A stretch of 64,000 nucleotides of DNA from a virus (lineage: Duplodnaviria; Caudoviricetes), in the IMG/VR virus record IMGVR_UViG_3300028886_000003, positions 1 to 64,000 of that record; one strand, given 5' to 3'. A program made the position numbers and the translations under genes. Below, one piece after another: positions 14,287 to 56,689 of this stretch; within the stretch, counting starts at the first letter, position 1, and every line of letters begins with the position of its first letter. The notes under the pieces are model-generated. The model was not told the origin of the DNA. It saw nothing but the letters and a program-made list of their open reading frames with translations, and searched no databases.

Positions 14287-17200
14287 ATGAAATATAGTGA
14301 AATAATTGATAATATTGATTTTCATAAAAATATGCAAGAAACAAATTGGCTAAAGCTCTTTCCAAAATGGTGGTCTGAAAATGATCCATTATTAAAAATT
14401 ATTGGAGATGAAATTGAGTTAATGAAAGCTCAAGCTATTTTTGAGTTACTTAACACAGTTTTAAAGCCACCTGTAATGATTTGGCAAGAGTCTATTGATC
14501 ATAAAGAATATAAAGAATCTTTTTCAATTGTTGATGAAAAAAATGAATCAATTAAATTGCCAGGACCTCAATATAAAACATATGGAAAAATTAAAATAAA
14601 AAATAATACAATAGATGATATTAGTGATTTAAAAATTTATTTAAATGAAACTGACTATATTGTAATATTAGATACAATAACAACAGATGATGAAATACTT
14701 ATTAATGTTGGTAATTCAGAAAAAGTATATATTAATAACGAAGAAGCTAATATCAAAAAATATGGAAAAGGATTATCTTATTTTTCAACAGTAGCAAATT
14801 TAAAAAAGATTGACCCAACAGTTACTAAAACTAATAAAGATGGGCATACAGTTATATTCGAAATAGATATGCCTGATGATTATGTAGGGCATTTAAAAAT
14901 TACTGATGATCAGAAAGTTGTTGTATTTGATGAAGATATTACAAATGAAGATGGAACACTCTCTATTCAAGTAAATGATTTAAAATATATAAATAGAAAC
15001 TTTATATTAAAATTTACAAACAGTAATGAATACCTTGATACTATATACAATGTAAAAGATAAAACATCAATAGTAAATACTGATAATCTAAAACCTTTAC
15101 ATAATGAAGCTATTATGGTTTCAATTGATTGTGATAAAAAAGTTAATTTTGATATAGATGTTATACTTGATAATGTTGTTTTTATTAATGAACAAAATAT
15201 AGAAGTTCATGGATTAGAACTAATACCAATCGATAGAATAGAAATGTTTGCTTTATATGATTTTCCATATAACCAAAGAGTTAGTGGATGGTTTAAAGTA
15301 TATGAAAAAGAATATGATGAAAATACAAGTGTTGTATATGATATGATAACAACACATTTCTATACAAAAAAATTCTATGTTGAAGTATATTTCAAAGGAT
15401 TAGATCTCCCATACAAAGTTGGATTCCCTGCTTATAAAGATGCTGAAAAACAATCTATGTACCATATTAATGAGCACATTGATGAATGGGGTAAATATTT
15501 TGGATTAAAACGAAGAGATTACAAAACTTCTATTCCAGATAAAGACTATCCTTTTACATATCCAAAGTTTTATCCTTTTGATATTGAACAAGATTATTGG
15601 TATTATCAAAGATTAATTAATGAATATGCATGGAATGACTTAGCTATTAATGAAGTCGATTTAATTGATACAGAAGGAAATCCTATGGTACGATTGCATT
15701 CTATTGATCCTTTTGTTCAGGATTTTGTTGTTTATGCTAATTCAAGGTATCCGAAAGAACGTGAAAATATTGATTATAGTTTATTTAATGTTACAAATGT
15801 AGATTATAAACATCTTGAAGCAGAATATAAACGTGCAGGATTTGCTGATTTACAGAATTTACTTCATTATGATGATAATAAAGCATATGTAATATTAGGA
15901 AATAAAAAAGGATTACATATTTCATCAGAAGCATATAAATCAAAACCATTAAAGACTAATTTTGATTTAACTTATTTACCTGAGGATATTGATATTGAAG
16001 ATATTGTTGTTTTAGTAGAGGGGGAAGCTACTGATAATAATGTAGATAAATTTAGTAACGAAGAAACAGGTATTATTATTCATGGAATTGATGAAGATAA
16101 AGTTTTTAAAATGAATCCATCTGATATATATGGAATGGAAGAAAAAACTATAGAATATCATTTATCTGATAGCATTAAAGACATAAAGAAATCTATTCAT
16201 CAATATGATGCAAATATTGTGCACAAAGCAATTATTAAACCTTTTACTGCTAAACAAGGAACATACGTTAATATTCCTTTTGTTTTAAAAGAAAATGGTG
16301 AAATTGTTGATGATATTACTGAAGTATATGTTACATATGATGGAATTAAAACTTATCAAGCTGAATATTATTCTGATGAAAATGGAAGATATATAAGAGT
16401 ATGGCTGCCAATTTCAACTATTAATTATACAACAATGTCTATTTCATGTAAAAGTAATAAATATAATTCTTTTAGCATAGGAAACATTGCAATAGAAAAC
16501 GTTGTTCAAGAAGAGGAAATCTCAGGCGATATAAAAAATGTTCATTATATATCTGCTCCTATTATCGATGGTAAACAAAAAACATTATATAGTGAAGATG
16601 AATGGCATACAGGAGATTTAAGAAATATCTTACAAAAAGATAGTATTTCCTTTGTAAATACAATAGAAAATAGTAATGAAACCAACACACCTACTATTTT
16701 TATTAAAAACGTTCAATTAAAAATAAAACATAAAGAAAAAAAATCAAGTTTTAAATTACAAACAAGAATAAACACTCAAAACATTCAAGCTCCTAATATA
16801 GGTCAATTATTAGTTACAATCACAAATACTGGAACTACTCAATTATTAACTAAGATTGATATTGTTAATGCTAATAATATTAAATTATCTCAGAATTATA
16901 TTGATGTAGATTTAAATGTCGGACAATCTGACACTATTGCGATTAATATTATACCTGAATATCCTATTTTAGATGGAAGATATGAAATATTAACTATTTG
17001 TGAGGATAAAACTTGTAATAATTCTATATTATTATCATCAAGTGGTTTAATACAAACAGGAGTTAAAATAGATCCAATATATAGTGTATATGGAGCACCT
17101 ATTAATTTAGTTGCATCAGTTGTTAGTAATGATACTAAAATAAATGAAGGAAAGGTTTCTTTTTATATAGATAATTTTAAAATTACAGATTGTGATGTAA

Positions 17201-25893: not shown

Positions 25894-25895
25894 AA

Positions 25896-27188
25896 ATGGA
25901 TAATAAATTAAAATATGTTGATAATAATGTAGCAGCTACAATTGATAATGAAACTCAACATATAAATGTTTATGAAATTATTAAATTTAAAACATACTTT
26001 ACTTTAAATAATAATATTAACACAATATTAGAAAAACCTATTGATATTAATTTATATTTAAAATATATAAATGGAAATAATAAATCTGAACTTATACCAA
26101 AAGGGTATGTTGATATTATAATAACAGATATTTCTAATAAAAATATATTATTAAAAACAACAGTTAATTTTAATAATGGAAAAATAGAAACACAAATAAA
26201 AAATAATCTACCAATAGGAACATATATATTAACAATAAAATATCCTGGTAACAAATATTATGAAGAAAAAACAATTAGCTTTCAATTTTTAATTAGTCAT
26301 AAAACTGCAAAATGTATATTTGAAAAAGATTTTTATGAAGAATATCCAAATAAGATTTTTAACATAAATATGAGGTTATTAGATGTCTATACAAACAAAA
26401 AAATTAGTAATTGTACTATTAATTACTCTTTTAATAATTTTGATTATATTACAAAAACAGATGAAAATGGGTTTGCTAACTTAATAATTAACACACCTGA
26501 CATAGATCCAAGTAAATGTACAAGTAATTTTAAATATCCATTAAAAGTATATATAGACGATCCATCATATAGATTGTCATCTGAAACAAGTATTGATGTA
26601 TATATAAAAAAATATAAAACAAGTATAATTTATACTTCATCAATTGATAATGATATAATAAAAATTATAGGTGATATATATGGATATGATGATGATGAAA
26701 AAATTGTTAATGTAGAATATGGAACTGTAGATTTTGATATTTTAAATATTAATAAACAAATTAGCACAGATGTAGATACAAATGGACATTTTAATCTTGA
26801 TATTCCAATTGATTTAACAGAAAATGCCAATATAGAACCACAAGAATTAGAAAATTATTCAGTACCTCAAACAACAAAAATAGAAGTTGATTTGCCAAAT
26901 GGTACAACAATGACACGTAATTATGTAAAAAAGAATAGAATAAAAATTGTAGCAAATGTTACATCAAAAGATAAGCCAGTTCCTTATGGTATGGTTAGTT
27001 TTATTATTAGTCAAGAAAATAAAGAAATTTACAGATATGTTAGTGAATTGGATATGGAGGGAACATGTGTTTTTCATTTTGATGTATCTACTGTAGGTTC
27101 ATATCAAGTTAAAGCAGAATATCATAGTATTTTTGAATATCAACCATCGATAAGTGAAACTAAAAAATATACAATAGAGGATGAATAA
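25896..27188 (+). CDS. Ig-like repeat adhesin/fibre protein
   Basis: Ig-like motifs 'LPIGTYILTIKYPGNKYY', 'TKTDENGFA' and 'VGSYQVKAEY'. Confidence 0.65.
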   Translation: MDNKLKYVDNNVAATIDNETQHINVYEIIKFKTYFTLNNNINTILEKPIDINLYLKYINGNNKSELIPKGYVDIIITDISNKNILLKTTVNFNNGKIETQIKNNLPIGTYILTIKYPGNKYYEEKTISFQFLISHKTAKCIFEKDFYEEYPNKIFNINMRLLDVYTNKKISNCTINYSFNNFDYITKTDENGFANLIINTPDIDPSKCTSNFKYPLKVYIDDPSYRLSSETSIDVYIKKYKTSIIYTSSIDNDIIKIIGDIYGYDDDEKIVNVEYGTVDFDILNINKQISTDVDTNGHFNLDIPIDLTENANIEPQELENYSVPQTTKIEVDLPNGTTMTRNYVKKNRIKIVANVTSKDKPVPYGMVSFIISQENKEIYRYVSELDMEGTCVFHFDVSTVGSYQVKAEYHSIFEYQPSISETKKYTIEDE

Positions 27189-27189
27189 A

Positions 27190-27756
27190 ATGGCATGGAT
27201 AAAAGATTTAGGTAAAGTAAAAGGTGAAAATGGAGATATATATACACCTAATATTGAAACTAATAAAAATAAAGCAACAATTAAATGGAATAAGAAACTT
27301 GATGCTGATAGTAGCTCTTTATTAGAACAAAGCTTTATAATTCCTGTTTATGTTCCTACATATGATGAAGCAGAAGGAAAATTAATTTTTGAGCTAAATA
27401 CATCAGGAATTCTTGATGTTGATACTTATACTTTGCCATTACTAAAAGTACAAAAAACTATTAATAATGGATTTGAATTAAGATCATTTACAGGCGATCC
27501 TAATAATATTGAGAACAAAGAGCCAGGTGTATTTTATATTGAAGATACTGATAATGATAATTATAGAGTATATATATATGATACAAGTAAAAAGAAAATG
27601 GTTGCAATAGAAGGTCTTGCTTTTGATGATTTCGATAATTATTACACTAAAGACCAAATAGATGAAAAAATTGGAAGTATAGCAGAACAGCAAGAATATA
27701 TTAGTGAAATGCTTGGTATTCCTTATGTTGAGGAAGTACCTACAAATAATGGTTAG
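27190..27756 (+). CDS. Putative tail fibre connector protein
   Basis: Fibre-type motifs 'DLGKVKGENG' and 'NYYTKDQID'. The start is at 27190 or 27181. Confidence 0.45.
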   Translation: MAWIKDLGKVKGENGDIYTPNIETNKNKATIKWNKKLDADSSSLLEQSFIIPVYVPTYDEAEGKLIFELNTSGILDVDTYTLPLLKVQKTINNGFELRSFTGDPNNIENKEPGVFYIEDTDNDNYRVYIYDTSKKKMVAIEGLAFDDFDNYYTKDQIDEKIGSIAEQQEYISEMLGIPYVEEVPTNNG

Positions 27757-27767
27757 AGGTTTTTTAA

Positions 27768-31199: not shown

Positions 31200-31236
31200 C
31201 TATTAGATTCTAAATTTTATTTCAATAGTGATTATA

Positions 31237-31923
31237 ATGATTTTAGAATTTTCAGTTGGTCATGACATATTAAAACGAAATAGTTCTCCTAGTGTTGTAG
31301 ATCAAAATACTGGTTATTATAAATGTAAATTTTTCCCCAAAAAAGAACTTTGGTCAGGGAGAGAATTAAACGCAACTTTTATTAATGATCTTGGATATAT
31401 TGAAACGGTAAAACTTGGAGAATATGCTGAGTTATTAACTTGTTTAGTGCCAACAAGGATAGCTTCAGGTGGATATTTTCGTTTATATATATTCTCTGAA
31501 GATCATATTAAAACTAATACAATTTCAGTTGCATTAACTAATCACTATCAAAAAGCTGAAGAAAAATGTAATGTTATTTCTGAGATTTTTGCTCAAGTAA
31601 ATGAAAAAATTGACGATATTGTATATGAAAATTATCAATTAAAATTTTATAGCGATGGTACGTTAAAAGATGTTATTTACTTAGGCAATATTGATGAAGA
31701 TTTAGTTATAAATCTTGTTAAAGAAGAAATAGATACATTTAGAAGTACATTGGCTACTGTAGCTTTTACAGGATCATATAATGATTTAGTTGATGTACCT
31801 GAAAGTTTTCCTCCATCTAAACATAGTCATATGACAGATGATGTTGAAGATTTTGAGGAAGCAGACCAAAATAATTTAGATAAACTTTTATCTACGTTAA
31901 AAAATGAATTAGATTTAATTTAA
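31237..31923 (+). CDS. BppU-like / fibre-attachment protein
   Basis: Beta-rich N-terminus plus the fibre motif 'ATVAFTGSYNDL..VP' and an HSH motif. Confidence 0.5.
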   Translation: MILEFSVGHDILKRNSSPSVVDQNTGYYKCKFFPKKELWSGRELNATFINDLGYIETVKLGEYAELLTCLVPTRIASGGYFRLYIFSEDHIKTNTISVALTNHYQKAEEKCNVISEIFAQVNEKIDDIVYENYQLKFYSDGTLKDVIYLGNIDEDLVINLVKEEIDTFRSTLATVAFTGSYNDLVDVPESFPPSKHSHMTDDVEDFEEADQNNLDKLLSTLKNELDLI

Positions 31924-31934
31924 AGGATGATATT

Positions 31935-33026: not shown

Positions 33027-33049
33027 AAAAATAAATAGAAGGTAATATT

Positions 33050-34298: not shown

Positions 34299-34340
34299 AT
34301 TCTATGATTATTTATGAAAAAGAACTGCTTAGGTGAAAAA

Positions 34341-37094: not shown

Positions 37095-37101
37095 ATAAAT
37101 A

Positions 37102-38073: not shown

Positions 38074-38077
38074 TACT

Positions 38078-40879: not shown

Positions 40880-40881
40880 TA

Positions 40882-43572: not shown

Positions 43573-43576
43573 ATAT

Positions 43577-43601
43577 ATTAGAAAATAGATATGCCTATAA
43601 T
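43577..43601 (+). promoter_or_regulatory. Putative viral promoter motif ATTAGA-N13-TATAAT
   Basis: Intergenic, 50 nt upstream of the ATG at 43627, with the same spacing as the copy at 14236. Confidence 0.4.
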
Positions 43602-43626
43602 ATTTATACAATATGAGGCATATTAA

Positions 43627-46600
43627 ATGGCAGATAAGATATATATTTATCCTAAAAAAATTCAAACAAGTACTGGGCAATCTATTGAACATAATACTCA
43701 GAAAATTACAAATCCTAGTTTTTTATGCTCTTCAAATCAATCTTTAGCATATTGGGGAGTTAAAAATCCAACATATGTTGGAAATTATTTACGTAATTAT
43801 TACGATAGTGTTACAAGTATCACTGGATCTTATTATAAGCCTGAACCAATATATGCCATCTCTTGGGATATTGATGAATTATCTAGTGATGATAAAATTA
43901 ATAGTATCATAGTACAATACAAATGGGAGCAAATAAGTTACTCATGTGGTACTAATGCTTGTTATGGAGATTTTGATAAACCAACTATATCTATTATTTA
44001 TGATGGAAAAGTTATTGCAAGTGGTAAAGGATCTAAGCCTGACGCAGTACGTTACAATAATAACAAAACAAATGAAGAAAAAATGAATGTAAATTCTGCT
44101 GAATTATCTACTTTACATTCACAAACTTTTAAGATTCCTGAAAAATATAATTTAACTGCCAAAAAATTAAAAGATGTAAAAATAAAATTTGCCCCTGCAA
44201 AAAATACCTCACATAATCATTGCCGTATTGTTATGCAATTTTTACGTATGAAAGTAGATTATACACCATATGTAAAACAAGTTGAAACAGTTCCTAATTA
44301 TAGAGTTAATAGTGCTTATATTTCTGCAAGAGAGCCAGATCGATATAATCCTACTATTACTTGTAACTCAGAACATGTAGAATTTTCTTATTTTTGTTCC
44401 ATTAGAAATAGTAATAAATATAATAAAAATACTACTTGTAAATTTACTATACCTGATGATATTACTGTTATTGAAGCTAAGCCTTATAATGGTGATTATG
44501 ATTATTCAACTAATACATGGAATATACCAAGCTTTGAAGGATATAAAACATATATACAATTGGTATGTAGCTGCAGTAATGTTGGAAGTAAAAAAATAAT
44601 AGCTAATATTAATCAGTATGCTGATTCAATTAATAAGAGTAAAGAATGTAGTTTTGAAGTAAAAAAAATTGAAGATAGTTTTGAATGGAATGTTTCAATT
44701 GATGGAGATAATGCTCCATATATATATAATGGAAAAGATTCATTGAAAAAACGTTTAAGGGTAGATATTCATAGAATATGTGATTCTAATCGTCAAGAAA
44801 ATGTTATTATTGATACACAAAATTGGATTACAGAAAATATATGGCGTGTTAGTAATGATGAAAGTAATTACGATTACAATAATATTAAATATTTAGGCGA
44901 AGGAAAATGGGAATTTAAAAATATTATTGGTAAAGATATTGCAATTATTAGTAATAAAAATGGAGCATATCCTACTTTAAATCCTGGAGAATATCATATA
45001 ACTGTAACACATCAAGAAAGTAGAAAAAAAGATGAAGTAAAAAATATTGATATTTATGTAACTTATGATAAATTACCAATGGATTATTTTAAATTAAGAC
45101 TTGAAGATGGTTCTGATATTAGATATAATTCATTTATAGTGTCAGAGGGAGATGATTTACAGTTCCCAATTACATATGAACCTCTTCCTGATAATCTTGC
45201 CGATAATATTACTATTTATGGAGAGGATAAACGTATTCCTGTAAGTGAAGCAAGATATGTTACATATACAATTGATAGTAAAGTAAATTTAAAAAATGTA
45301 TTATGTGAAATAGAGGTTATTGGATCAAATTATATTGAAGAAGAAGGTCAAACTTATTATTCTGATAGTTCTGAAATAATTATTGGTGTTGATAATCAAG
45401 CTGAATTATTAACAGGTATTGATAAAAAATTCTGTGTTATTAATGAAATAAAAGCAGATGAAAGTAAGAAAATTCAATTTATAGTTCAGTCTGATATGGA
45501 ACAAGATTGTGTTTTTAAATTAAATTTGTTAGGTTATAATGAAAAATATGAAACTAAGGATTGGAAGCCTGCTAATATTATTTTTAAAGATGTACCTAAT
45601 GTAAAATTATCAATAGATGTTAATGATGATGATTTATCTATTCCTGATAATGATACAATTGAAGTGCAATATATTATTGAAAATCAATCAATGGTAGATG
45701 GTACAGATATAAAATTCCAACTAAAAGAACCATCATCTTTTAAAGTTCAAAACTTTGACTATAAAGGATCACAAGTTAAATATGCACTTTATCAACCACC
45801 AAATGAAGAAAGATTACCACAAGAACCTATCTTTGACCCATATAAAAGAATAATAACTTTCCCAACTTTATGGGGGAAAAAATATTCAGAATTACAACAA
45901 TCATATGTTACACAAAAACATATTTTAAAAATAGTATACAAAGCTACACAAAAAGGTATTTATAACCTCAAATTAGAAACACTTGATGATAAAAATACTT
46001 TTGAAGATGATCAACAAAAAAATAGTACAACAAAAAGAATTATAGTTGATACATCTAGTAAAATTAAAGTAAAAACATCTGTTAATAACAATACTCCTTT
46101 TGTTAATGAATTAATTGATTATAAAATTAGTTTCAAAAATTATATAAAATCCCAAGATAATATTAAATTTATTATTAAAGATATTGGTAATTACGATGAT
46201 TTACATGAAACAAATGATTATAAATTAGAATATGATTTAAAAACAAAAGGTAAATTAAAAACAAAATTTAATAACAATAATATAGGAATATGGAAAATTA
46301 AACAAGTAGATGTAAATGAAGAGCAAGAATTAACCCTAACATTAAGACCGCAACAATTAGGGTATCATATAATTGAAGCAACCTTAATTGATAATGATGG
46401 ACAAAAAGAAACCTTTTCCAATATTGTTAATGTACTTGAGCCTAATAAACAAATAGATTTTAATGTTTATCATGCTGTAGGAACAACAAAAGATACTGAC
46501 TGTTCTGATTTCGACAATATTATTGAAATTTGTGATAATGATTATATTGATTTAGGAGATACTTTATTTTATGTATGTGAAGTAAAAAACAACAATAGAA

Positions 46601-49600
46601 ATACAATTGAAGATACAACACATGTATACATAAGATTAAATGATAGCTTCTTAGATAATGATATAATATGTAGCACTCATAATATCACAAGACAAGATAA
46701 TAATCTTCTACATATTCGTATTCCTCAAATTGGTGGTTGCCAAACTGAAAAAATTTGTTTCAAGATTCAACCATCTAAAATTGGTACTTATATAAGTAAT
46801 TTTATGTTAAGCAATCGTAATGCACATATATATCATAAAAAACTAACTATTAATGTTGATACAGAATTTAATCAAAAAAAATTAGAACACGAAATTACCA
46901 TTTACAATTTTGAAAAAACAAACCATTACTTCAGATATGAGCTTGATGGTAATAATGATATTTTTAAATTCTTCAACAGAGGAGCAGATAAATCATTAAG
47001 ATTAGTAGATATTGAAAATTATGAAAATGGAAGTATTGAAACATATAGAGGGTCTAATATTAAAAAACTTATTAGAGATATATCTAATAATTCAAAATAT
47101 GTTGAACCTGAATTATTAAACATAGGTAATAATAAATTAGCTCCAAAAGGATATGAAATATATCCTGATGGTTTTATACGAAGATTTGGATTATTAAACT
47201 CAGAAGTATTTCATTATACTGGTCAATTACCTACAATAAGTTTCTTAGTAGATAGAGCTATGAGATGGAATCAAGATAATTGGGATGAAAAATTTTGGGC
47301 TGGTGATGATTATGATAATGGTGTTTTTGATTTAACTATTGATTATAATAAAATACCTACTAATTTCAATATCTTAGAGGTAGAGAATCCAATTAAAAAT
47401 TTACAAGCACTTGTTGATAAAACAAAACCATATGGTACAAAAGCATTATGTTATTATTCAACAAAATTATATTTAGATTTAAAAGTTGATGCTCAATTAT
47501 ATGATTTTGAAATTGGAGCAAATGCTAGTTTGTTTAATAAATTAAAAAAGCTTGGACTAATCTCGTTATATCATAAACATGACAAAAGTATAGCAGCTAT
47601 TTATGATTTGTTTGAATTTGGATTAAAAACTAATATGGACTTATATGAATTAGTAGAATTATCAAAAGCGAAAAATGAATATACTAATCAATATAAAGCA
47701 GAACCATATAATAACTTAGGATTAGCAACTAATACAATGCTTGTAGCAGAAGTATTTGATCAACAATATTCAAAAAAATATATTAATGAATGCTATGATA
47801 TTGTAAATATGCTTTATAGTCATAATTCAAATATTTCCAATATAGACATTATAAAAGACTACAATTATAAAGAAAATCATTCAAATAATAATTTCGCATT
47901 AATGCTAAATGAAATTTATAGTTTTGAATATACAGATAAAGATACAACATCTATTTTTATTGATGATAAAAAATATGAAATAAAATGTATTGAAGATGAT
48001 TTAGAGCAATTTATTGGTTTTAAAATTACACAAGATGATAAAGAATTATTTAGTACAAATTTCTATACTAACATTTCAAAATATAATATTCAAATACAAA
48101 TGTGTGATATTCCTAATGTTAATAATAAGTATATTGTTCATATTTTTTCAAGTATTAATGAAAAACCATATGTACATATTGGATATATAATAATTGATAT
48201 ACATAATGAGATTATAATACAACCAAGTGAATACAATTCATATTCATATGATACTAATGATCAAAAAATTAAATTTAGAATATCAGACAATATAAAAACA
48301 TTAAAAGAATCAGTAAGTAAAGTAGTACAATTTGATAAAACATATAAGTGGAAAGGATTAAACAATATTACTAATAATAATAAATATGCTTATATTGAAA
48401 ATAATATCGATATTGATAAAGAATGTAAAGAAACTGAAGTTAAAACACCAACAATTGGTTTAAAATATGATAAATTTAATCTTAGCAACCAAGATGAAAT
48501 TATAGATATTGGTGTTAAAATTAAAGCAAAAACAAACAAAGAAAACTTTTTAGATGATGTTAGAATAAATCTTTATCAAAATGGTGATTACTATATTCCT
48601 GAAAATAATATAGCAAGAAAAATACACTACCCTCAATCAGTACAAAATATGTATGATGATTATGTAAATACTATTTTTGTACAACAACCTAATATTACTA
48701 TTTGTTCACATTGTATGCATACTCATATCGGTTTACTTGATTATTGTCCAGATTGTCAATCTGATCAAGTATCCCAGTATGATGAAAAAAAATCTGTTAC
48801 AATATGTAGAAATCCTGAATGTGAATGGATTACAGATGATTGGCATGATTATTGTCCTCATTGTTTATCAAAGGATGTTGAAAAAACAAAGGTTGATTTT
48901 AATAGGACATATTGTTTTGATTGTCAAGTTGTTTTCAATGATTATTATCCTGTATGTCCTAAATGTGGTAAAAAAAATATTGTTCATACAAATAAAGATG
49001 AACAAAAGTATGTGATTGCTGGTAGTGAAAAAGAAAATATTGATAAGATAACTATACATAGTGATACAAATCGTGTAAACATTTGTAATTTAGAAATCAA
49101 AGTACAGGATGTTATTGATAAATATAAATTATTTGATACTTTAAAATTACATTTAAAAGGTCAGAATTATAATAATGGGCATTTTTACTATTGTCCTTCT
49201 TGTGAGAAAATTTTCTTAGATGATCATAATCATTGTCCGTATTGTAATAATAAAAATATTGAAGAATATAGTGATTTTAATAATACAAATATATATGTAT
49301 ATATACAAGATGGTAGTTCAATAAGTGAGATAAAAATAGATGAAGAATATGGTCAATTAAAAGATAGTTTTGATGTTCCAATTGATATATTATCAATTGT
49401 TGATAGCATTAAACAACCAAGTTTTAGTCTATTGATATATGCTGAAAATTTATTATATGATAATGTTAATAATCTCATTGAAGAATTAGACACAGACGAG
49501 GAAAGTTATGATTTGTATGTAAATAATCTCCCAGTAATGAACCTAACCTTAGATAACATTTATTATGAACAACAATACAAAGGAGAAACAGAATGGGAAG

Positions 49601-51039
49601 GATTAGATAAACTACAATATGCTAATCATACAGGTATCAAATATAGTACAGATAACGAAGAAACAACAAGATATATTCGATTTGATGACTTTGATATACA
49701 ATCAGATGAATATAATCATTTATATTTAACAATTGCTGGAATCAATAAATCAAGCAAACATATAAGTCTAACAATAAATGTTAACACAAAAAATACAGAC
49801 ACAGAAGAACATGTAATATCAGGAATTGAACCTGACTTATTTGAAGAAAAAATTGATTTATTTAATTTTATGAAAATAAAACAAGTGCAAGATATTTCAA
49901 TACAAATACAATTTACAGATTTAGAAGAACAATCAGAAATTATAATTACACATGTATCATTAACAACAGAAAAAGAACAAAACAAAAACATATTATATGG
50001 AAATACAAAAACACAAGACTATCATATAGCAAATGAAAATGATACTTATTTGTTTACTACATATGATATTTTCAATATAATTAATAATCATCCATTTTAT
50101 ATTGATAATAGATTATTGGATACAAATTTAGTATGTTATTTAGATTTCGGATATTTACATAATCAAGAATATATACGTTTGTATGATGTAGAATTGGTTA
50201 TATTATATAAAAATAAATATGGAAAAATGATTACAGAATATATAGACTTATATGATGAGCAATACGATAAACAATTATCTAATGCTAAAATACAAAAAAA
50301 TGATGCTGAAATTTGGGGAGCAATACAAACATCAGTTAATACATTAAATAATTTAGAATCTCAAATATTTAATAATGTTGAAGAAGAGGATTTACAATCA
50401 ACTTCTTTGAAAAAAGAATTATTACAATCATTTACAACATTAACAAACGATATAAGTCAAATTAGATTAGATTACGATGGTTATATTGGATATCCAAGCG
50501 ATATGATTACAGTACAAATATTTGATAATTATCAAAATAAACCTGATAATCTTTTATTCTCAAATACTATTATGACACCATCAACAAAAGACGAAATGTG
50601 TATAGATATTAATTTAGACAATATTGCACAAGGTAAATATTGGATTAAACTAATAGATGAAGAAGCTGATGATAATAATTATCATAAATTTTGTCATAAT
50701 AGAAATTTAGATATTGGTAACCTTATAATACAAGATAAAAATGGAAAATACCAATATGATGAAAATAAAGTATTAAGTTTTGCTGTTGACTCACATAGTG
50801 ATATACAACAGTATTATAATACACCGACAACAATAGATGTTGATAATATTTTAGATTTCAAAACATGCTATACTTTGTATAGATATAATACACAAAGTAA
50901 TAGTAATGCTTATATTTCTGATATAAAAAATGAATTAGGATATTTACAATACACTGATCAAAATGATATTGAAATAGAGGATACTTATGATGCAGAAGAA
51001 CTTCAAGATCAAAGCGACACAGATATTACAAATTCATAA
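43627..51039 (+). CDS. Giant (2470 aa) virion protein with DUF11-like Ig domains, a wedge-like motif and zinc ribbons
   Basis: DUF11-like 'NNNTPFVNELIDYKISFKN...GIWKI' and wedge-like 'LVDKTKPYGTK'. Four CxxC...CPxC ribbons lie at 48703-49245. Confidence 0.6.
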   Translation: MADKIYIYPKKIQTSTGQSIEHNTQKITNPSFLCSSNQSLAYWGVKNPTYVGNYLRNYYDSVTSITGSYYKPEPIYAISWDIDELSSDDKINSIIVQYKWEQISYSCGTNACYGDFDKPTISIIYDGKVIASGKGSKPDAVRYNNNKTNEEKMNVNSAELSTLHSQTFKIPEKYNLTAKKLKDVKIKFAPAKNTSHNHCRIVMQFLRMKVDYTPYVKQVETVPNYRVNSAYISAREPDRYNPTITCNSEHVEFSYFCSIRNSNKYNKNTTCKFTIPDDITVIEAKPYNGDYDYSTNTWNIPSFEGYKTYIQLVCSCSNVGSKKIIANINQYADSINKSKECSFEVKKIEDSFEWNVSIDGDNAPYIYNGKDSLKKRLRVDIHRICDSNRQENVIIDTQNWITENIWRVSNDESNYDYNNIKYLGEGKWEFKNIIGKDIAIISNKNGAYPTLNPGEYHITVTHQESRKKDEVKNIDIYVTYDKLPMDYFKLRLEDGSDIRYNSFIVSEGDDLQFPITYEPLPDNLADNITIYGEDKRIPVSEARYVTYTIDSKVNLKNVLCEIEVIGSNYIEEEGQTYYSDSSEIIIGVDNQAELLTGIDKKFCVINEIKADESKKIQFIVQSDMEQDCVFKLNLLGYNEKYETKDWKPANIIFKDVPNVKLSIDVNDDDLSIPDNDTIEVQYIIENQSMVDGTDIKFQLKEPSSFKVQNFDYKGSQVKYALYQPPNEERLPQEPIFDPYKRIITFPTLWGKKYSELQQSYVTQKHILKIVYKATQKGIYNLKLETLDDKNTFEDDQQKNSTTKRIIVDTSSKIKVKTSVNNNTPFVNELIDYKISFKNYIKSQDNIKFIIKDIGNYDDLHETNDYKLEYDLKTKGKLKTKFNNNNIGIWKIKQVDVNEEQELTLTLRPQQLGYHIIEATLIDNDGQKETFSNIVNVLEPNKQIDFNVYHAVGTTKDTDCSDFDNIIEICDNDYIDLGDTLFYVCEVKNNNRNTIEDTTHVYIRLNDSFLDNDIICSTHNITRQDNNLLHIRIPQIGGCQTEKICFKIQPSKIGTYISNFMLSNRNAHIYHKKLTINVDTEFNQKKLEHEITIYNFEKTNHYFRYELDGNNDIFKFFNRGADKSLRLVDIENYENGSIETYRGSNIKKLIRDISNNSKYVEPELLNIGNNKLAPKGYEIYPDGFIRRFGLLNSEVFHYTGQLPTISFLVDRAMRWNQDNWDEKFWAGDDYDNGVFDLTIDYNKIPTNFNILEVENPIKNLQALVDKTKPYGTKALCYYSTKLYLDLKVDAQLYDFEIGANASLFNKLKKLGLISLYHKHDKSIAAIYDLFEFGLKTNMDLYELVELSKAKNEYTNQYKAEPYNNLGLATNTMLVAEVFDQQYSKKYINECYDIVNMLYSHNSNISNIDIIKDYNYKENHSNNNFALMLNEIYSFEYTDKDTTSIFIDDKKYEIKCIEDDLEQFIGFKITQDDKELFSTNFYTNISKYNIQIQMCDIPNVNNKYIVHIFSSINEKPYVHIGYIIIDIHNEIIIQPSEYNSYSYDTNDQKIKFRISDNIKTLKESVSKVVQFDKTYKWKGLNNITNNNKYAYIENNIDIDKECKETEVKTPTIGLKYDKFNLSNQDEIIDIGVKIKAKTNKENFLDDVRINLYQNGDYYIPENNIARKIHYPQSVQNMYDDYVNTIFVQQPNITICSHCMHTHIGLLDYCPDCQSDQVSQYDEKKSVTICRNPECEWITDDWHDYCPHCLSKDVEKTKVDFNRTYCFDCQVVFNDYYPVCPKCGKKNIVHTNKDEQKYVIAGSEKENIDKITIHSDTNRVNICNLEIKVQDVIDKYKLFDTLKLHLKGQNYNNGHFYYCPSCEKIFLDDHNHCPYCNNKNIEEYSDFNNTNIYVYIQDGSSISEIKIDEEYGQLKDSFDVPIDILSIVDSIKQPSFSLLIYAENLLYDNVNNLIEELDTDEESYDLYVNNLPVMNLTLDNIYYEQQYKGETEWEGLDKLQYANHTGIKYSTDNEETTRYIRFDDFDIQSDEYNHLYLTIAGINKSSKHISLTINVNTKNTDTEEHVISGIEPDLFEEKIDLFNFMKIKQVQDISIQIQFTDLEEQSEIIITHVSLTTEKEQNKNILYGNTKTQDYHIANENDTYLFTTYDIFNIINNHPFYIDNRLLDTNLVCYLDFGYLHNQEYIRLYDVELVILYKNKYGKMITEYIDLYDEQYDKQLSNAKIQKNDAEIWGAIQTSVNTLNNLESQIFNNVEEEDLQSTSLKKELLQSFTTLTNDISQIRLDYDGYIGYPSDMITVQIFDNYQNKPDNLLFSNTIMTPSTKDEMCIDINLDNIAQGKYWIKLIDEEADDNNYHKFCHNRNLDIGNLIIQDKNGKYQYDENKVLSFAVDSHSDIQQYYNTPTTIDVDNILDFKTCYTLYRYNTQSNSNAYISDIKNELGYLQYTDQNDIEIEDTYDAEELQDQSDTDITNS

Positions 51040-51139
51040 TGATGATACAAATGAAACTGAATATTTAATCGAAAAAGATGGTGAATGGGTAAAAATTACT
51101 GAAGATAAATATGAACAAATAAGAGGTAAAGTATGTTAG
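50987..51139 (+). CDS. Small hypothetical protein (50 aa, not in the ORF track)
   Basis: AGAGG RBS at 50976-50980. Translation MMQKNFKIKATQILQIHNDDTNETEYLIEKDGEWVKITEDKYEQIRGKVC*. It fills the gap and overlaps both neighbours. Confidence 0.55.
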   Translation: MMQKNFKIKATQILQIHNDDTNETEYLIEKDGEWVKITEDKYEQIRGKVC

Positions 51140-51543
51140 AAAAATATATTACAGAAGAAGGTAAAAAACATTGGCTTAAATTAGGTTTTTTAACCGATGA
51201 TAATTCAAGTAACTTTAATTATGTAGCTCTAGGTGTTTCAGACAGTAGTGCAGCAATTAATAATGGACAAGGCTTTACAGAAGCTAATGGAAATGATTAT
51301 GCTCGTGTACAATTTGTAGAAGAAAATCAAATAGACAATACTGGAACATCAATTACACTTTCAGCTACTTTTGATAGTACAAACTTTAATCCATCTGAAC
51401 CAGTTACTATATCAGAGATAGGAATTGTTAATCAGGACATTGCAAATAACAATGATGTATTTTTTGCTTATATGAGTGTACCAACAATTGAAAAAAGCTC
51501 TAATGTTAGTCTTAAGTATACTGTAATCATTGGATTAGAATAG
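51133..51543 (+). CDS. Tail-collar / fibre-base-like protein (DUF3751-like)
   Basis: Pattern 'ITEEGK...YVALG...TISEIGI...FAY...K'. Confidence 0.6.
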   Translation: MLEKYITEEGKKHWLKLGFLTDDNSSNFNYVALGVSDSSAAINNGQGFTEANGNDYARVQFVEENQIDNTGTSITLSATFDSTNFNPSEPVTISEIGIVNQDIANNNDVFFAYMSVPTIEKSSNVSLKYTVIIGLE

Positions 51544-51553
51544 AGGTAATATT

Positions 51554-54500
51554 ATGCCATACTATAAACAAGTATTAGGAATTGAATCCACAAAACTTGC
51601 ACAGGCTGAACATATTAATTTAATACAAAGCCATGTGAATAATGCTTTTGTAGAATGCTTAAGTGATCTATTTGGGAATGGATGTATATTAGATGATGAT
51701 GAAGAAGCATTAAAAGTAACCCCTACACCATATCATATTGATGCATCTAATAAAAATTTTGAGAATGAAAATGATTATATTTCTTTTTATGACAGATATT
51801 TAAGACAAGAATTTGAAACAAATAAATCAGAAATACAATCTTTTAATTTAAAGATGCACAATACATCTAATCTTAAACCAACAATTTTTGCTGAAATAAG
51901 AGATACTGATATGAATTTTATTGCAGAAGCTCATACAGAACTCCCAATTACGACTGGTGAAACTGGACCAGCTGATGTTAAATTTATTTTTAACTTAAAA
52001 CATCAACCTACTAGTACATATTATTTCGTTCTAAGACCTATAGATATTAGTGCTACAGATTTTAATGATGTTAGCGAAACAATTGTTCCTGATATGTTTA
52101 CTGTTAAATTTGATAGATCTGGAAGTCTTAATCAAGGACTATATGCATCTTATAATGGTGTAGATTATTTGCAATCTAATATGCTTGATGATCAAGTAAC
52201 ATTAGATACAGGTGAATATTCAGTATCTTCAGATGTTAATTATGATTTATATTTTGAAGAAGTTTTTAGTAATGGTAACACATATACAATTGATAAAGCA
52301 ACATGTTTAGTTAATGGAGAAAAAGTAATGCCAATTGACACACATGTAGTTATTGATGGACCATCAAAAGGACATAATAGAATAGATTTAGTTACATTAG
52401 ATATAGAAGGACATTTCAATGTAACAGAAGGAGTACCTTTTATTGGTCAAGCAACAGAAGATAAATATCCTACTAATGATTTAGGATTAAAAGTTGCATA
52501 TATAACTACTTATGCTAATTCAGCTGATACATGGACATGTCCAAATTGTAATACTGTAAACGATGGAAATGTTTTAAGCTGTGTAGAATGTGATACAACA
52601 ACAAATAATAAAATTCCATTAATTGAGCAAAGTGATGAAAATGGTAAAACTAGACAAAGAGATTTAATGGAAAGAATTCGTAGACTTGAAAAAAAGGTGG
52701 ATTATCAAATTAAAAATAATACTCCATCTCGTGTCAAATACACTTGTGCTGTTGACCCAACAATTGCTACCGCTGGAGAAGTTGTTAGAACAGAAGATGG
52801 CGGTGAAATATTTGTAGCTGCAGAAGATAAATATAATATACAATATGAAACAAATGAAAATGGGGAAAATGTTGCTGTTTTCAGAGGAACAAATAGTGAA
52901 ACTTTTGCATGGTCAATTATTAAAGAAATTACAACAAAAAAGGTTAAAAAGGTTGAAGGAATGGCAAAAATGTCAACAACAGACATATCTATTCCGGCCA
53001 AAAAACCTAAAAAACCAAAAGATAGTCAATATTATACTCTAAATGTTAAACGTAGAGAAACAAAAACTATATACAAAAAACAAACAAGTGAAGATGGAGT
53101 TGAAAGAGATGATGTAACTTCATATTATACTTCAGCCTATAACATTCCTATTGATTTATATATTATAAAAATTGTTAAAAAAGAAGTAAAAAGTAAAAAT
53201 GCAAAAGATAAAAAAATTAAAGAAATTCAAGAAGAAAAAAAGATAGTAGAAAAAATTAAAAATAAAAGAACTAATGCAAACGGTAATATCAATATTGATT
53301 TATGGAATTATAAATTAAGTAAAGGAAAATATTACATGGTTGCAAAATATGATGATAAAAAATTAACTTCTGTTATCTATATTGATCAAGATGATGTTAA
53401 ACTAGAAAAAAGAGGTCCTATTGAAATTAAAATCTCAGAAAAACCTATAGAAAAAACTTCAGTTAATGTACAGGATAATGTTTTCACAGGTAATGATTCA
53501 TTTTATACTAAAAATATGAAAGTAGATGAAGATATTGGTGAAGTATCTATTGAAACATTAGACACTAGTAGTTTGAAAAAGGAAGATTGGATGAACATTC
53601 CTAAAGAAAAACAAACCAAAGATGCAAATGTTTCTAAAGCAAGTTTTAAAATTGATGCAACCAATACCTGTGAATATTGTATGTATAGTTTTGATGTCGA
53701 TCATGATTGTATTGCATATAATATAACTCCATTCCTTTATGCTTTTGAAAATATTAAAGCCTTTAAAATAGTTTTATTTGAAAATCCGAAAATATTTGAA
53801 ATTAACAATACAAGAACATCATATGAAAAATTTTTAGATAAAGATAAGGCAGAAAAAACAGTTTTCAAAAATTTATACGAATCAGATTGGATAAAAGTAA
53901 AAGGTGCTAGTAAAGATAGTAAAGTAAAAGTTTCTGAGAAAAAACAAACAACCTTTGATTTCGGCCAAGATGGAATATTACTTAAAAAAGGTGTATATAG
54001 TATAGTATTCATTGGAGCTCTATATAGTAAAAAGAAAGAAGGAAAAATCTATATTGAAGAATATCATACAAGTAAAGCAACAAAATATGGTGGTATTTCA
54101 TATGTATATGGTTCATACAATCCTAATAAAATTTATATTCAAAAAAATGGTTTAAGAAATAGAGCAATTATTTTTAAAATGAATAGAGCATTATTAACAC
54201 ACTATAGTTCAGGAACATTAGTTTCAAGAATAATAGAAACACAACATCAAATTTCATCATGTAAAATTAAACCTAATTATGAGATTCCTCCTGGCTGTGA
54301 TGTATTTACATATGTATCGAATAATGGGGGAAGAACGTATGTAGAAACAAAAGATAATAGTAATACTGTAACTTTTCCTGGCTTAGGAAGTCAATTTAGA
54401 TGGCGTATTACTTTTAATGGTACTGCATTAAAAACTCCTAAACTTAAATTTAATGGGAAATATGCTATTAAATTTGAATTATCAGAAAAAGAAAATTATA

Positions 54501-56689
54501 TTACATATGAAGATTATGGACGTTGTTTTGCTACACCTATATTAAATGCAAATACAATTACAAGATCAGTAGCATTAAATAACAATATAAAAAATAAATT
54601 TGCCGAATGGGAATTTGCTAGACTATGGATGGAAGATGAAGATCTAGCGTCCAATATGGATATATGTTTTGCTTATGATAATAAGAATTATGATACAACA
54701 GTAGAACATACACAAAAAGAATGGCCTAATAGTATTTTCTTTAGTCAAGTATTAGGAAACTTAACACTTGAAGATTTTGATCAAACTTCTATTGATTATA
54801 GTAATTATGATGCTGACACAGAACCTGATGAAAATAATTTCAGACTTAAATATGATACAGATATGGCAAATACAGGTGACATAATTGTAGCAACACCTTT
54901 GGCAAATGAGGATGGAGATAGGTATAATTATTCATATGGTAATATTAATGTAGAAAATAATGATATGGAGAATTTTACTTATTCTTTAACAAAAAACACA
55001 ACACTTTATAAAGATAATACAAATGATGTATCAAATAAATATAGTGGTGTACATTTGGTAACTGGTTCATATTATCAAGCGTTATATAATAAAACTACTA
55101 ATACAACAGAAAGTACAAAAAGAATATGGGCTAGTGATGGTGGAGATCCAACATATGATCCAGAGGCTTGTATTATTGGAGTTCAATATCAAAATGGATT
55201 AGAAATTACAGATAATTATACCTCATTAACTGTTGATATTTTTGCAAATTTACGTGACCATCTTGAACAGGTAGTAGCATCAACAACTACTACAACAAGT
55301 GAGGAAGGGGAACCGGAAAATTCAACATCTAATCCGGCTGATCAATTATCTGATATTGGTATATTACAATATGAAAATGGAGAACCTGTAATAAATACTA
55401 ACAGAACAATTGATCAAACAAAATATATGTATGAAGATAAGTGTTATTATATTCCACAAGGTACACTTGAGTTAGTTGTTTCATTAAATCCAAATGGATT
55501 GATTGAAGAAAATAATGCAACATATGGAAAAGTATATACTGTTGATATTCCAATTCGATCATGTAAACATACACCTTTTACTATTAATTTATCCGATCTA
55601 TATGGTAGTACTATATATAGTATAGGACTTCGTGTTAACAAAACAGTAGTAGAAAAAGCAGAAGATGGAGTATTAAAACATCCATCTTTACATGAAGGAG
55701 ATATATTAGCATTAGGTAACATATCCTTAAATGGAGAAAATATTAAACCATATACTCCTTATATTTATAGTGGTGATACAAATAGATGGAATTGGACTGC
55801 TTTAGATAAAACACAAGTATCAACTGCATATGTATTATATGAATCAGTTAAACCTGATAATACTGAGCCAAGAATGTCATATTTACCAATTTATAAATTA
55901 GGAGATCCAGCTGGAAAATATTCATATCCTTATCCTGGAACAGGAGATAATATACAATATTCAGATCCAGTATTCCACAATGGAACATTAAATTTATATG
56001 AACAAGATGGTACTGCATTAATTTTAAGAGAAAGTAATTTAGAACAAATTAGTGTAGATAAAGCTAGAGATTCAAATGAAATTAGTCTTTATTATCTAAA
56101 AGAAAATCAAGAAAGAGGTGATTTATTTAGGAAAAGCACAGAAAATGCAAACAGTATAATGTTCCATATTAATGTTAATGATTTTGCGCGTGGATCTTTA
56201 TTTAAAATCGATACTGATGTTAATTTAACACCATATGATTGGATTGAGGTTGAATATTATCTTGAGCATATAAAAGAAACAGAATCTGAAAGTAATGTTA
56301 TGAATGAATATAATATCTTAAAAGGAGAAGTATTTTTAGATTTATATGATACAGTTGACTATAAAAATGCAGAGCCAGTTGAACAGCTTCCATTGCCGGC
56401 ATGGGGTAAAACACAGAATAATTATAATCAATCAAATAAAACAGTTCATGCATGGTTTAAAATACATAGTGATGCTGCATCTGTAAAATGTATTGTTTTA
56501 AGAACAGAAAAATTAAATTGCAGAACACCTGCTGATTTACGTTTAGTTATTGCTGATATTGTATTCTTAAATACTGATACAGTGCCGGCTTTAGGACCAC
56601 AAATGCAAATGCGTATTTATCCAAAAAATGAAAGCGCATTAACTAATACAAAAATTAGAAAATTTGGTTGTGTATATAGATTGGGATGA
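51554..56689 (+). CDS. Large virion structural protein (DUF4815-like) with an inserted RanBP2-type zinc finger
   Basis: 'RIDLVTLDIEGHFNVTEGVP...RDLMERIRRLEKKVDY' resembles DUF4815. 'YVSNNGGRTY...FRWRITF' is also present. Confidence 0.55.
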   Translation: MPYYKQVLGIESTKLAQAEHINLIQSHVNNAFVECLSDLFGNGCILDDDEEALKVTPTPYHIDASNKNFENENDYISFYDRYLRQEFETNKSEIQSFNLKMHNTSNLKPTIFAEIRDTDMNFIAEAHTELPITTGETGPADVKFIFNLKHQPTSTYYFVLRPIDISATDFNDVSETIVPDMFTVKFDRSGSLNQGLYASYNGVDYLQSNMLDDQVTLDTGEYSVSSDVNYDLYFEEVFSNGNTYTIDKATCLVNGEKVMPIDTHVVIDGPSKGHNRIDLVTLDIEGHFNVTEGVPFIGQATEDKYPTNDLGLKVAYITTYANSADTWTCPNCNTVNDGNVLSCVECDTTTNNKIPLIEQSDENGKTRQRDLMERIRRLEKKVDYQIKNNTPSRVKYTCAVDPTIATAGEVVRTEDGGEIFVAAEDKYNIQYETNENGENVAVFRGTNSETFAWSIIKEITTKKVKKVEGMAKMSTTDISIPAKKPKKPKDSQYYTLNVKRRETKTIYKKQTSEDGVERDDVTSYYTSAYNIPIDLYIIKIVKKEVKSKNAKDKKIKEIQEEKKIVEKIKNKRTNANGNINIDLWNYKLSKGKYYMVAKYDDKKLTSVIYIDQDDVKLEKRGPIEIKISEKPIEKTSVNVQDNVFTGNDSFYTKNMKVDEDIGEVSIETLDTSSLKKEDWMNIPKEKQTKDANVSKASFKIDATNTCEYCMYSFDVDHDCIAYNITPFLYAFENIKAFKIVLFENPKIFEINNTRTSYEKFLDKDKAEKTVFKNLYESDWIKVKGASKDSKVKVSEKKQTTFDFGQDGILLKKGVYSIVFIGALYSKKKEGKIYIEEYHTSKATKYGGISYVYGSYNPNKIYIQKNGLRNRAIIFKMNRALLTHYSSGTLVSRIIETQHQISSCKIKPNYEIPPGCDVFTYVSNNGGRTYVETKDNSNTVTFPGLGSQFRWRITFNGTALKTPKLKFNGKYAIKFELSEKENYITYEDYGRCFATPILNANTITRSVALNNNIKNKFAEWEFARLWMEDEDLASNMDICFAYDNKNYDTTVEHTQKEWPNSIFFSQVLGNLTLEDFDQTSIDYSNYDADTEPDENNFRLKYDTDMANTGDIIVATPLANEDGDRYNYSYGNINVENNDMENFTYSLTKNTTLYKDNTNDVSNKYSGVHLVTGSYYQALYNKTTNTTESTKRIWASDGGDPTYDPEACIIGVQYQNGLEITDNYTSLTVDIFANLRDHLEQVVASTTTTTSEEGEPENSTSNPADQLSDIGILQYENGEPVINTNRTIDQTKYMYEDKCYYIPQGTLELVVSLNPNGLIEENNATYGKVYTVDIPIRSCKHTPFTINLSDLYGSTIYSIGLRVNKTVVEKAEDGVLKHPSLHEGDILALGNISLNGENIKPYTPYIYSGDTNRWNWTALDKTQVSTAYVLYESVKPDNTEPRMSYLPIYKLGDPAGKYSYPYPGTGDNIQYSDPVFHNGTLNLYEQDGTALILRESNLEQISVDKARDSNEISLYYLKENQERGDLFRKSTENANSIMFHINVNDFARGSLFKIDTDVNLTPYDWIEVEYYLEHIKETESESNVMNEYNILKGEVFLDLYDTVDYKNAEPVEQLPLPAWGKTQNNYNQSNKTVHAWFKIHSDAASVKCIVLRTEKLNCRTPADLRLVIADIVFLNTDTVPALGPQMQMRIYPKNESALTNTKIRKFGCVYRLG

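Follow-up and report, generated by a model that had tools for sequence, protein, structure and literature searches.

The DNA analysed here (the window) is a stretch of 64,000 nucleotides corresponding to bases 1-64000 of the IMG/VR virus record IMGVR_UViG_3300028886_000003 (Duplodnaviria; Caudoviricetes), which has a total length of 145,330 bp and a GC content of 28%. Between positions 14287 and 56689 it contains 17 closely spaced open reading frames (ORFs) on the + strand, whose products measure, in this order, 3868, 430, 191, 1143, 231, 363, 336, 236, 322, 61, 236, 323, 933, 896, 2470, 136 and 1711 amino acids (aa). This block of 42,403 bp occupies 66% of the window, or 29% of the whole genome, and six of its proteins range from 896 to 3868 aa, in agreement with a preliminary description of the same DNA, made from its letters only, which had attributed about two-thirds of the window to these genes. 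The block starts 56 nucleotides (nt) 3' of the baseplate wedge genes, with which it forms one co-oriented operon, and the co-oriented run goes on through another pair of small genes (122 and 197 aa) up to 57628, where the strand switches. We consider it probable that a 145-kb myovirus of a pseudomurein-walled methanogen uses this block as a late operon for its outer baseplate and its apparatus of adsorption to the host, and that the block is an expanded form of the module made up of baseplate J, a small wedge protein, ORF39, ORF40 and ORF41 in Methanobacterium virus PhiF1.

The wedge genes encode a Baseplate J-like protein (12505..13677, + strand; PF04865, 9.7e-9; phrog_6, 1e-28), 28% identical to its counterpart in PhiF1, and a small wedge protein of 183 aa (13680..14231, +; phrog_120, phrog_975 and phrog_261), homologous to PhiF1 ORF38. 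The block itself, entirely on the + strand, opens with a giant protein of 3868 aa (14287..25893) rich in immunoglobulin-like (Ig) domains, 9-11 of which, of the Big_3_5 type, are spread over residues 930-3400. Next come a 430-aa protein with two Big_3_5 domains (25896..27188), a 191-aa protein (27181..27756) and a 1143-aa protein with Ig-like domains at residues ~820-1100 (27768..31199). They are followed by the genes of the 231-, 363- and 336-aa proteins (31228..34060), a 236-aa protein (34314..35024), a 322-aa lysin with a pseudomurein-binding repeat (35075..36043), and a second 236-aa protein together with a 323-aa protein (36384..38073). The 3' part of the block is made up of the 933-aa (38078..40879) and 896-aa (40882..43572) proteins, a 2470-aa giant (43627..51039), a 136-aa protein (51133..51543) and a 1711-aa giant (51554..56689). 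Two small coiled-coil proteins of 122 and 197 aa (56664..57628, +), which are kept in two of the relatives described below (G153 and G152), close the operon.

Genome and virion type

The record bears a direct terminal repeat of 116 nt and has a CheckV completeness of 100%. Outside the window, it encodes the large terminase subunit TerL (genome 125386-126936; phrog_2, 4.3e-36), a major capsid protein 28% identical to that of PhiF1 (130259-131596; phrog_1650, 5e-10), a sheath protein with 32% identity over 342 aa to the "putative tail sheath protein" of PhiF1 (134773-136992; phrog_23, 1e-6), a tube protein (137004-137480; PF18906, 2e-5, under the curated cut-off) and an XkdN-like chaperone (137579-138139). 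The structural module wraps round the record ends: the tape measure gene (+ strand) joins genome 138392-145330 to window 117-5639 and encodes 4153 aa in total with no internal stop across the join. Window positions 1..5639 (+) hold its C-terminal 1841 codons, in frame over the 116-nt repeat, and PF10145 (PhageMin_Tail) matches its N-terminal part at 3.9e-18. Since the tape measure gene crosses the record ends, the 116-nt "terminal repeat" is probably the assembly overlap of a circular or permuted genome.

With TerL, major capsid protein, sheath, tube, tape measure and baseplate J genes on a complete record with terminal repeats, this is a contractile-tailed virus (Caudoviricetes, myovirus type), as had been proposed in the preliminary description. 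The same description had considered that chromosomal flanks devoid of capsid and terminase genes would turn the element into a tailocin or an extracellular contractile injection system; both genes were found, on a self-contained virus genome, and these candidates are ruled out. Its suggestion of a "jumbo" virus has to be abandoned on account of size: that term applies to genomes >200 kb, and the genome is large but measures 145,330 bp, while its relatives span 139-156 kb. Tape measure lengths in relatives are 2685, 2718 and 4605 aa, the longest (in the relative L007) also carrying PF10145. Tails usually measure ~0.15 nm per tape-measure residue, and the tape measures of this group predict tails of ~0.4-0.7 micrometres, which would be extreme for any tailed virus.

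Relation to PhiF1, uncultured relatives and host

Among 50,697 GenBank phage records, the best match of TerL (36% identity) and the sole match of baseplate J (28%) both come from PhiF1 (MK994522), a 74-kb virus of Methanothermobacter that is the nearest cultured relative of the virus studied here. About 20 genes of the structural and replication modules (NrdD, DnaE, nucleases) are common to both viruses in the same order, and both genomes follow the same plan, in which the structural genes lie on one strand and NrdD, the nucleases and DnaE on the other. In PhiF1, baseplate J is followed by ORF38, ORF39 (1310 aa), ORF40 (127 aa), ORF41 (836 aa), additional large proteins and lastly a PeiP-like lysin. 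ORF38, ORF39, ORF40 and ORF41 respectively correspond to the 183-, 3868/2470-, 136- and 1711-aa proteins of the present virus. In ORF39, residues 347-427 align with residues 392-472 of the 3868-aa protein (42% over 81 aa) and residues 449-598 with residues 1134-1285 of the 2470-aa protein. ORF40 and the 136-aa protein align over the full length, and the first 360 residues of ORF41 align with the N-terminus of the 1711-aa protein, in which the homologous region covers 400 aa. Because of these correspondences and of the shared gene order, the 43-kb block appears to be an expansion of the 13-kb module found in a cultured methanogen myovirus.

The two viruses nevertheless differ in several ways. 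The block behind the baseplate measures 13 kb in PhiF1, with proteins of 1310, 836 and 1165 aa, versus 43 kb here; a single PhiF1 ORF39 unites segments that are split here between the 3868- and 2470-aa proteins, ~18 kb apart; the tape measure has 1259 aa in PhiF1 and 4153 aa here; the GC content is 46% in PhiF1 versus 28%; and the lysin gene stands at the end of the block in PhiF1, whereas it lies mid-block in the present genome. Growth of the block by duplication of one fibre gene was also considered and dropped, as an all-versus-all BLAST comparison shows no paralogy among the six largest proteins.

The module is also found in uncultured viruses. The 3868-aa protein has 60 homologue clusters (3664-4067 aa, 31-56% identity), the 2470-aa protein 77 (mostly 2350-2650 aa) and the 1711-aa protein 35 (1508-1799 aa), and the long contigs that bear homologues of these giants measure 141-156 kb. 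An IMG/VR scan with baseplate J alone retrieved no relatives; an alignment query found them. Three IMG/VR relatives were compared whole: G153 (152 kb), G152 (139 kb) and G155 (121 kb). G153 and G152 have a syntenic counterpart for nearly every gene of the block, at 25-40% identity, in corresponding blocks of 47 kb and ~52 kb respectively; that of G155 is just ~17 kb long. Among relatives, conservation spans the entire length of the 3868-, 896-, 2470-, 136- and 1711-aa proteins and, judging from these comparisons, the giants tested (the one of 2470 aa included) are conserved core genes of a clade of uncultured viruses of about 140-155 kb.

Other proteins of the block are conserved at their N-termini only. 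This is the case of the 430-aa protein (the N-terminal 270 aa are kept in relatives and the C-terminus is variable), of the 191-aa protein (N-terminal ~70 aa), of the second 236-aa protein and of the 933-aa protein (N-terminal 270-540 aa, followed by a variable C-terminus). Such a pattern of conserved N-termini and variable C-termini is usual for fibres and exchangeable receptor-binding proteins. The 231-, 363- and 336-aa proteins show a patchy, mostly N-terminal conservation among relatives and are candidate exchangeable receptor-binding proteins. The 1143-aa protein is weakly conserved in G152 and G153, the 236- and 323-aa proteins encoded at 36384..38073 are partly kept in relatives, and the first 236-aa protein has no homologue in the three relatives compared.

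Several lines of evidence bear on the host. The 322-aa protein carries the pseudomurein-binding repeat PF09373 (3.6e-9; 36.7 bits versus a cut-off of 24.9), matches the endolysin families phrog_6007 and phrog_1519 at residues 165-213 and shares 34% identity with a gene from a metagenome-assembled genome (MAG) of a rumen Methanobrevibacter. This gene encodes a lysin and neither a fibre nor an adhesin, so that the earlier view of the whole block as fibres and adhesins stands as far as an elaborate baseplate periphery is concerned but does not extend to the 322-aa protein. Because of this lysin, of PhiF1 as the nearest cultured relative and of the methanogen-type Ig domains described below, a pseudomurein-walled methanogen (Methanobacteriales) is supported as the host, which agrees with the methanogen virus initially proposed. 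Within this order, a ruminant-gut Methanobrevibacter is the most likely host.

Immunoglobulin-like modules and methanogen adhesins

The preliminary description had recognized Ig-like, DUF11-like, beta-helix and carbohydrate-binding module (CBM)-like domains in the block and had taken them as typical of methanogen adhesins. As regards the Ig-like modules, it was borne out: Pfam Big_3_5 matches the 3868-aa (5.8e-38) and 430-aa (3.4e-13) proteins, weaker Big_3_5 and Big_1 matches occur in the 1143- and 336-aa proteins (Big_1 at 1e-5 in the latter), and an iterated hidden Markov model (HMM) built in this study delimits the 9-11 domains of the 3868-aa protein. The DUF11-like modules were recovered among relatives but not in the window: PF01345 (DUF11) is precomputed on ~14 of the 77 homologue clusters of the 2470-aa protein, some of which carry DUF11 or TackOD1, whereas the copy in the window stays below threshold. 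The beta-helix modules were not confirmed. At E <= 0.01, the Pfam sequence search yielded neither beta-helix nor Chlam_PMP matches in any block protein (structure models cover parts of the 3868- and 1711-aa proteins, and those of 2470, 933 and 896 aa may still contain a divergent helix), and PF13229 (beta-helix) was found in just 1 of the 60 homologues of the 3868-aa protein.

The distribution of the Ig modules was studied with a two-domain segment of the 3868-aa protein, which was searched against Methanobacteriaceae, Bacteroidota and GenBank phages. It matched tandem Ig arrays in giant ORFs of 90 of the 151 Methanobacteriaceae genomes (best E 5.5e-17, 62 bits; 20-36% identity), compared to a single one of the 151 Bacteroidota genomes (best 27 bits) and none of the 50,697 phage records. 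Two of the matched host ORFs have an adhesin-like architecture, one with eleven Big_3_5 domains and the other with Beta_helix, Chlam_PMP, five Big_3_5 and DUF11; the domain types of Methanobrevibacter adhesin-like proteins are given in PMC11532034. Since the host-family matches lie in adhesin-like ORFs and almost none were obtained in Bacteroidota or phages, the viral Ig modules are of methanogen type and belong to the methanogen "archaeal Big domain" family. The Big_3_5-type arrays of the viral 3868-, 430- and 1143-aa proteins, homologous to those of the hosts, are a likeness to the adhesin-like proteins of Methanobrevibacter and Methanosphaera.

Several scenarios may explain this likeness. 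One of them is that the giants are captured host adhesin-like proteins re-used as fibres, in which case the virion would show host-type adhesins able to bind mucus, feed particles or protozoal partners. The presence of methanogen-type Ig domains in the 3868-aa protein, their near-absence from Bacteroidota and phage records, and the bona fide adhesin-like architectures of the matched host ORFs would all agree with such a capture, as would the Ig enrichment published for gut Methanobacteriales viruses (cited in PMC11375127). Yet, the identity to host domains is just 20-36% and the likeness does not extend to the rest of the giants: none of the 933-, 896-, 2470- and 1711-aa proteins finds a match at E <= 1e-5 among the 151 Methanobacteriaceae genomes, and the 1143-aa protein matches them at residues 900-1100 only, that is, in its Ig region. 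Most of the viral giants therefore lack an adhesin-like counterpart. They also differ in architecture, as no 19-residue hydrophobic window that could serve as a transmembrane anchor occurs in any giant and neither right-handed beta-helix nor PMP repeats were detected in the viral proteins, whereas the membrane-anchoring domain is the commonest or second-commonest domain type in the adhesin-like proteins of two species (PMC11532034).

The phylogeny of the Ig domains also argues against a capture. Those that occupy equivalent positions in three viruses form well-supported groups (99/96-99/97), host domains cluster within their own proteins, and no viral domain is placed with strong support inside the repeat cluster of a host protein. 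The monophyly of the viral Ig domains is neither shown nor rejected (p-AU 0.30). Because the viral domains at orthologous positions group together, the Ig modules were already present in the ancestor of the clade, which implies an old inheritance within the virus lineage. The giants themselves are vertically conserved across the clade, and some can be traced back to PhiF1 ORF39-41. A recent co-option of host adhesins is not supported by these sequence comparisons and we deem the capture of host adhesins by the virus improbable. Only the Ig modules have counterparts in host adhesin-like proteins, and "co-opted host-type adhesins" is not supported as a general reading of the block.

Ig-like domains may not be restricted to the tail. 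The major capsid protein has 445 aa, compared to 304-312 aa in G152 and G153, and its extra C-terminal ~120 residues give weak CarboxypepD_reg-like (Ig-like) matches at 2e-4; this extension would represent an Ig domain fused to the capsid protein. Such a C-terminal extension would be a further likeness to the Ig-rich viruses of gut methanogens: PMC11375127 mentions an Ig domain on the capsid of an MSTV1-like virus and cites Medvedeva et al. 2023 for an enrichment of Ig-like domains in gut Methanobacteriales viruses, capsids included.

A bolder interpretation, which we regard as speculative and rather unlikely, would credit these 140-155-kb viruses of ruminant-gut methanogens with the most elaborate adsorption machinery so far known among archaeal viruses, with a ~15-protein baseplate, three giants of 1.7-3.9 thousand residues, a tape measure of 2.7-4.6 thousand residues, and Ig arrays that bind the partners of the host (protozoa, bacteria, plant particles, mucus). 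If this were true, the virus would wait where its host settles, by means of Ig arrays from the same domain family as the host adhesins.

Predicted folds and possible functions of the giants

Structure models were obtained for residues 1-700 of the 3868-aa protein and residues 512-1711 of the 1711-aa protein. The former, based on 16 sequences, has a predicted local distance difference test (pLDDT) score of 62 and consists of an N-terminal helix followed by beta sandwiches. Its residues 70-300 form a galectin-like sandwich whose best VIA-align matches are the Dit domains of phages (SPP1, monocin, 80alpha, Douge, p2; Z 8.6-10.5), modestly over the VIA-align background of Z ~7-8; Foldseek found no clear match to the 1-700 model. 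The AlphaFold2 model of the 1711-aa protein (20 sequences, pLDDT 72) is all-beta. Foldseek matched it best to chains of the Staphylococcus phage 812 baseplate (E 4e-9 to 3e-6, probability 1.0) and also retrieved the tail of Haloferax virus HFTV1 as well as CBM51 and reelin modules. In the VIA-align ranking, the Bxb1 tail tip came first (Z 11.6), ahead of the HFTV1 tail (Z 11.1) and the phage 812 baseplate (Z 10.7), and many CBM families came next at Z 7-9, over three separate segments; CBM61- and Cwp84-like matches were also obtained. In BFVD, the top match is an 836-aa protein (18% identity) whose length equals that of PhiF1 ORF41, with many phage tail proteins after it. The ESM Atlas was less informative: its feature search with the 1711-aa protein gave one unnamed viral cluster at 0.77, and its shape search only weak discoidin- and ConA-like rows. 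The C-terminal 1200 aa of the 1711-aa protein are thus predicted to form a chain of CBM-like jelly rolls, and the CBM-like modules of the preliminary description find support in this fold, though not in Pfam.

The tripod protein that sits on the baseplate arms of phage 812 contains CBM16/61-like and Cwp84 lectin-like domains and is read as receptor-binding; the same baseplate has a large arm scaffold protein that adjoins the wedge (PMC13433997). Judged by chain length and domain types, and not by a chain table, the matched phage 812 chain is probably this tripod protein. Like phage 812 and Listeria phage A511 (Herelleviridae), whose baseplates are made up of wedge, arm scaffold, tripod, RBP1 and RBP2, the present virus is a large myovirus of a thick-walled host in which the wedge genes are followed by genes for several peripheral proteins with multiple domains. 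A more specific likeness to the tripod (gp119 type) lies in the CBM/lectin-like beta sandwiches predicted in a protein of at least 1000 aa, the 1711-aa one, encoded 3' of the wedge genes. Nevertheless, there is no sequence similarity between both systems, the proteins are here 1.5 to 3 times larger and more numerous, and the wall to be recognized is made of pseudomurein instead of peptidoglycan with teichoic acid. Docking of a trimer on a loop of the arm scaffold is a feature of the phage 812 tripod; the present comparison involves genes and single-chain models. The fold resemblances favour a baseplate-peripheral, glycan-binding role without proving it.

Other roles for the giants may be considered. 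They could be mainly a structural scaffold (arms, braces, or decoration of the sheath or tail) that stabilizes a very large baseplate on an exceptionally long tail, recognition being left to the small variable proteins alone. The 3868-, 896-, 2470- and 1711-aa proteins are indeed conserved in length and sequence over their full extent, unlike hypervariable receptor-binding proteins, and both the 4153-aa tape measure and the large arm scaffold protein located beside the wedge in phage 812 (PMC13433997) would fit this possibility. On the other hand, CBM/lectin-like and Ig-like domains are classic binding modules, and the phage 812 protein that resembles the 1711-aa giant is probably the receptor-binding tripod. 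Structural and adhesin roles are moreover compatible with each other, and a purely structural function seems to us a minor, not very likely alternative. Alternatively, the giants might not be parts of the virion tail at all but capsid decorations, secreted or cell-surface proteins produced during infection, or defence or superinfection-exclusion factors that merely happen to be encoded in a late operon. The lack of a family annotation linking most giants to tails could be invoked in this sense, together with the Ig-like extension of the capsid protein, which indicates that Ig modules are not tail-restricted. Nevertheless, the giants have no signal-anchor or transmembrane segments, the block is in an operon with the wedge genes, PhiF1 keeps the same gene order, and the fold matches are baseplate and tail-tip proteins, all of which make this hypothesis very unlikely.

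If the block encodes an outer baseplate and adsorption apparatus, as we favour, the 3868-aa protein could dock on the wedge (baseplate J and the 183-aa protein) through its conserved N-terminal ~480 residues, a likely baseplate anchor, and project its Ig-like and other beta-sandwich domains as a long chain. The conserved set of 933-, 896-, 2470-, 136- and 1711-aa proteins might build arms or tripod-like complexes whose lectin/CBM-like domains would bind glycans of the cell wall or polymers associated with pseudomurein. The smaller genes located at 26-38 kb, with their conserved N-termini and variable C-termini, would then supply exchangeable receptor-binding heads that set the host range, and the putative pseudomurein-binding lysin would be produced from the same operon.

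A number of observations weigh against this interpretation. The data document how the genes are ordered and conserved, to which domain families and predicted folds their products belong, and how they relate to PhiF1; the presence of the giants in the virion, their oligomeric state, their ligands and the identity of the host-binding proteins are what we infer. Pfam gave nothing meaningful for the 933-, 896-, 2470- and 1711-aa proteins, PHROGs nothing for these four nor for the 1143-aa protein, and sequence searches of the PDB with the 3868-, 2470- and 1711-aa proteins were empty. The model of residues 1-700 of the 3868-aa protein is mediocre, fold matches hold at the domain level with global TM-scores of 0.1-0.3, and jelly-roll and Ig sandwiches are common folds. 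PhiF1 ORF14, which lies 3' of TerL in that virus and was used as a query for the portal, has no BLAST match in the genome, no dedicated family search having been run. As for the host, one 20-kb chunk searched at the DNA level against 314 Methanobacteriaceae genomes gave only AT-rich low-complexity matches (70-94% identity, mostly at 10.6-10.8 kb), and no CRISPR spacer link emerged from that 20-kb search. Finally, GenBank contigs labelled as MAGs of Clostridia, Bacilli or Erysipelotrichaceae from ruminant guts carry the NrdD genes closest to that of the virus (62-71%) as well as a homologue of the 2470-aa protein.

The last point, together with the GC content of 28%, could suggest that a low-GC bacterium (Clostridia or Bacilli) is the host, the element being a phage rather than a virus of archaea. 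Yet, one of these contigs measures 146,781 bp, the size of the present virus genome, and is very likely a mis-binned viral contig; the bacterial-labelled contigs in general look like viral contigs of the clade mis-binned into bacterial genomes. The lysin with a pseudomurein-binding repeat and a homologue in a Methanobrevibacter MAG, PhiF1 as the source of the only baseplate J match and of the best TerL match among GenBank phages, and the methanogen-type Ig domains also contradict a bacterial host, which we regard as exceedingly improbable.

The outer baseplate and adsorption apparatus that we favour has both known and new aspects. Complex multi-receptor baseplates are known from Herelleviridae and T4, and the Ig-richness of gut methanogen viruses has already been published, so the gain is one of anatomical detail and not a new principle. 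What seems new is the scale of the block, the lack of family annotation for four of the giants and an expansion that can be traced from a PhiF1-type module. Enteric methane emission is driven by the methanogens of the rumen and gut, and cultured viruses of these organisms are very few. In this context, the data point to an abundant uncultured clade of large PhiF1-related myoviruses in ruminant guts that would invest about 30% of the genome in attachment machinery and whose relatives would be wrongly assigned to bacterial MAGs in public databases. Together with the lysin, the lectin-like and Ig-like modules are candidates for studying how viruses recognize and breach the pseudomurein wall.

Some additional features of the genome deserve mention. 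The tape measure gene is followed by hub-region genes, among them that of a 633-aa baseplate hub-region protein (8067..9968, +), which resembles PhiF1 ORF35 (encoded between tape measure and baseplate J in that virus) and has a 620-aa paralogue (24-25% identity) at genome 123515-125377, just upstream of TerL, that also resembles ORF35. The homologue of the 633-aa protein in L007 has a faint Transglut_core match, and the pair could be a virion-borne wall-cleaving enzyme. The 197-aa coiled-coil protein at the end of the operon (57035-57628) has a single C-terminal transmembrane segment (residues 163-183), making it a candidate lysis or membrane-acting factor. The AT-rich low-complexity stretch at window positions 10580-10800, inside a 347-aa gene, has hundreds of matches in 288 of the 314 Methanobacteriaceae genomes (70-90% identity), which dominated the outcome of the spacer search, and is probably a shared low-complexity coding repeat. 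The 1.4 kb 3' of TerL (genome 126936-128297) contains small ORFs only, among which no portal gene was recognized. The minus strand bears, at window 60050-62497, a tandem array of three paralogues (290, 324 and 190 aa; 53-69% identity), which have no family match and are poorly kept in relatives. Six tRNA genes (Tyr, Gln, Ser, Arg, Trp and Leu) are located on the minus strand at genome ~80.2-83.0 kb.

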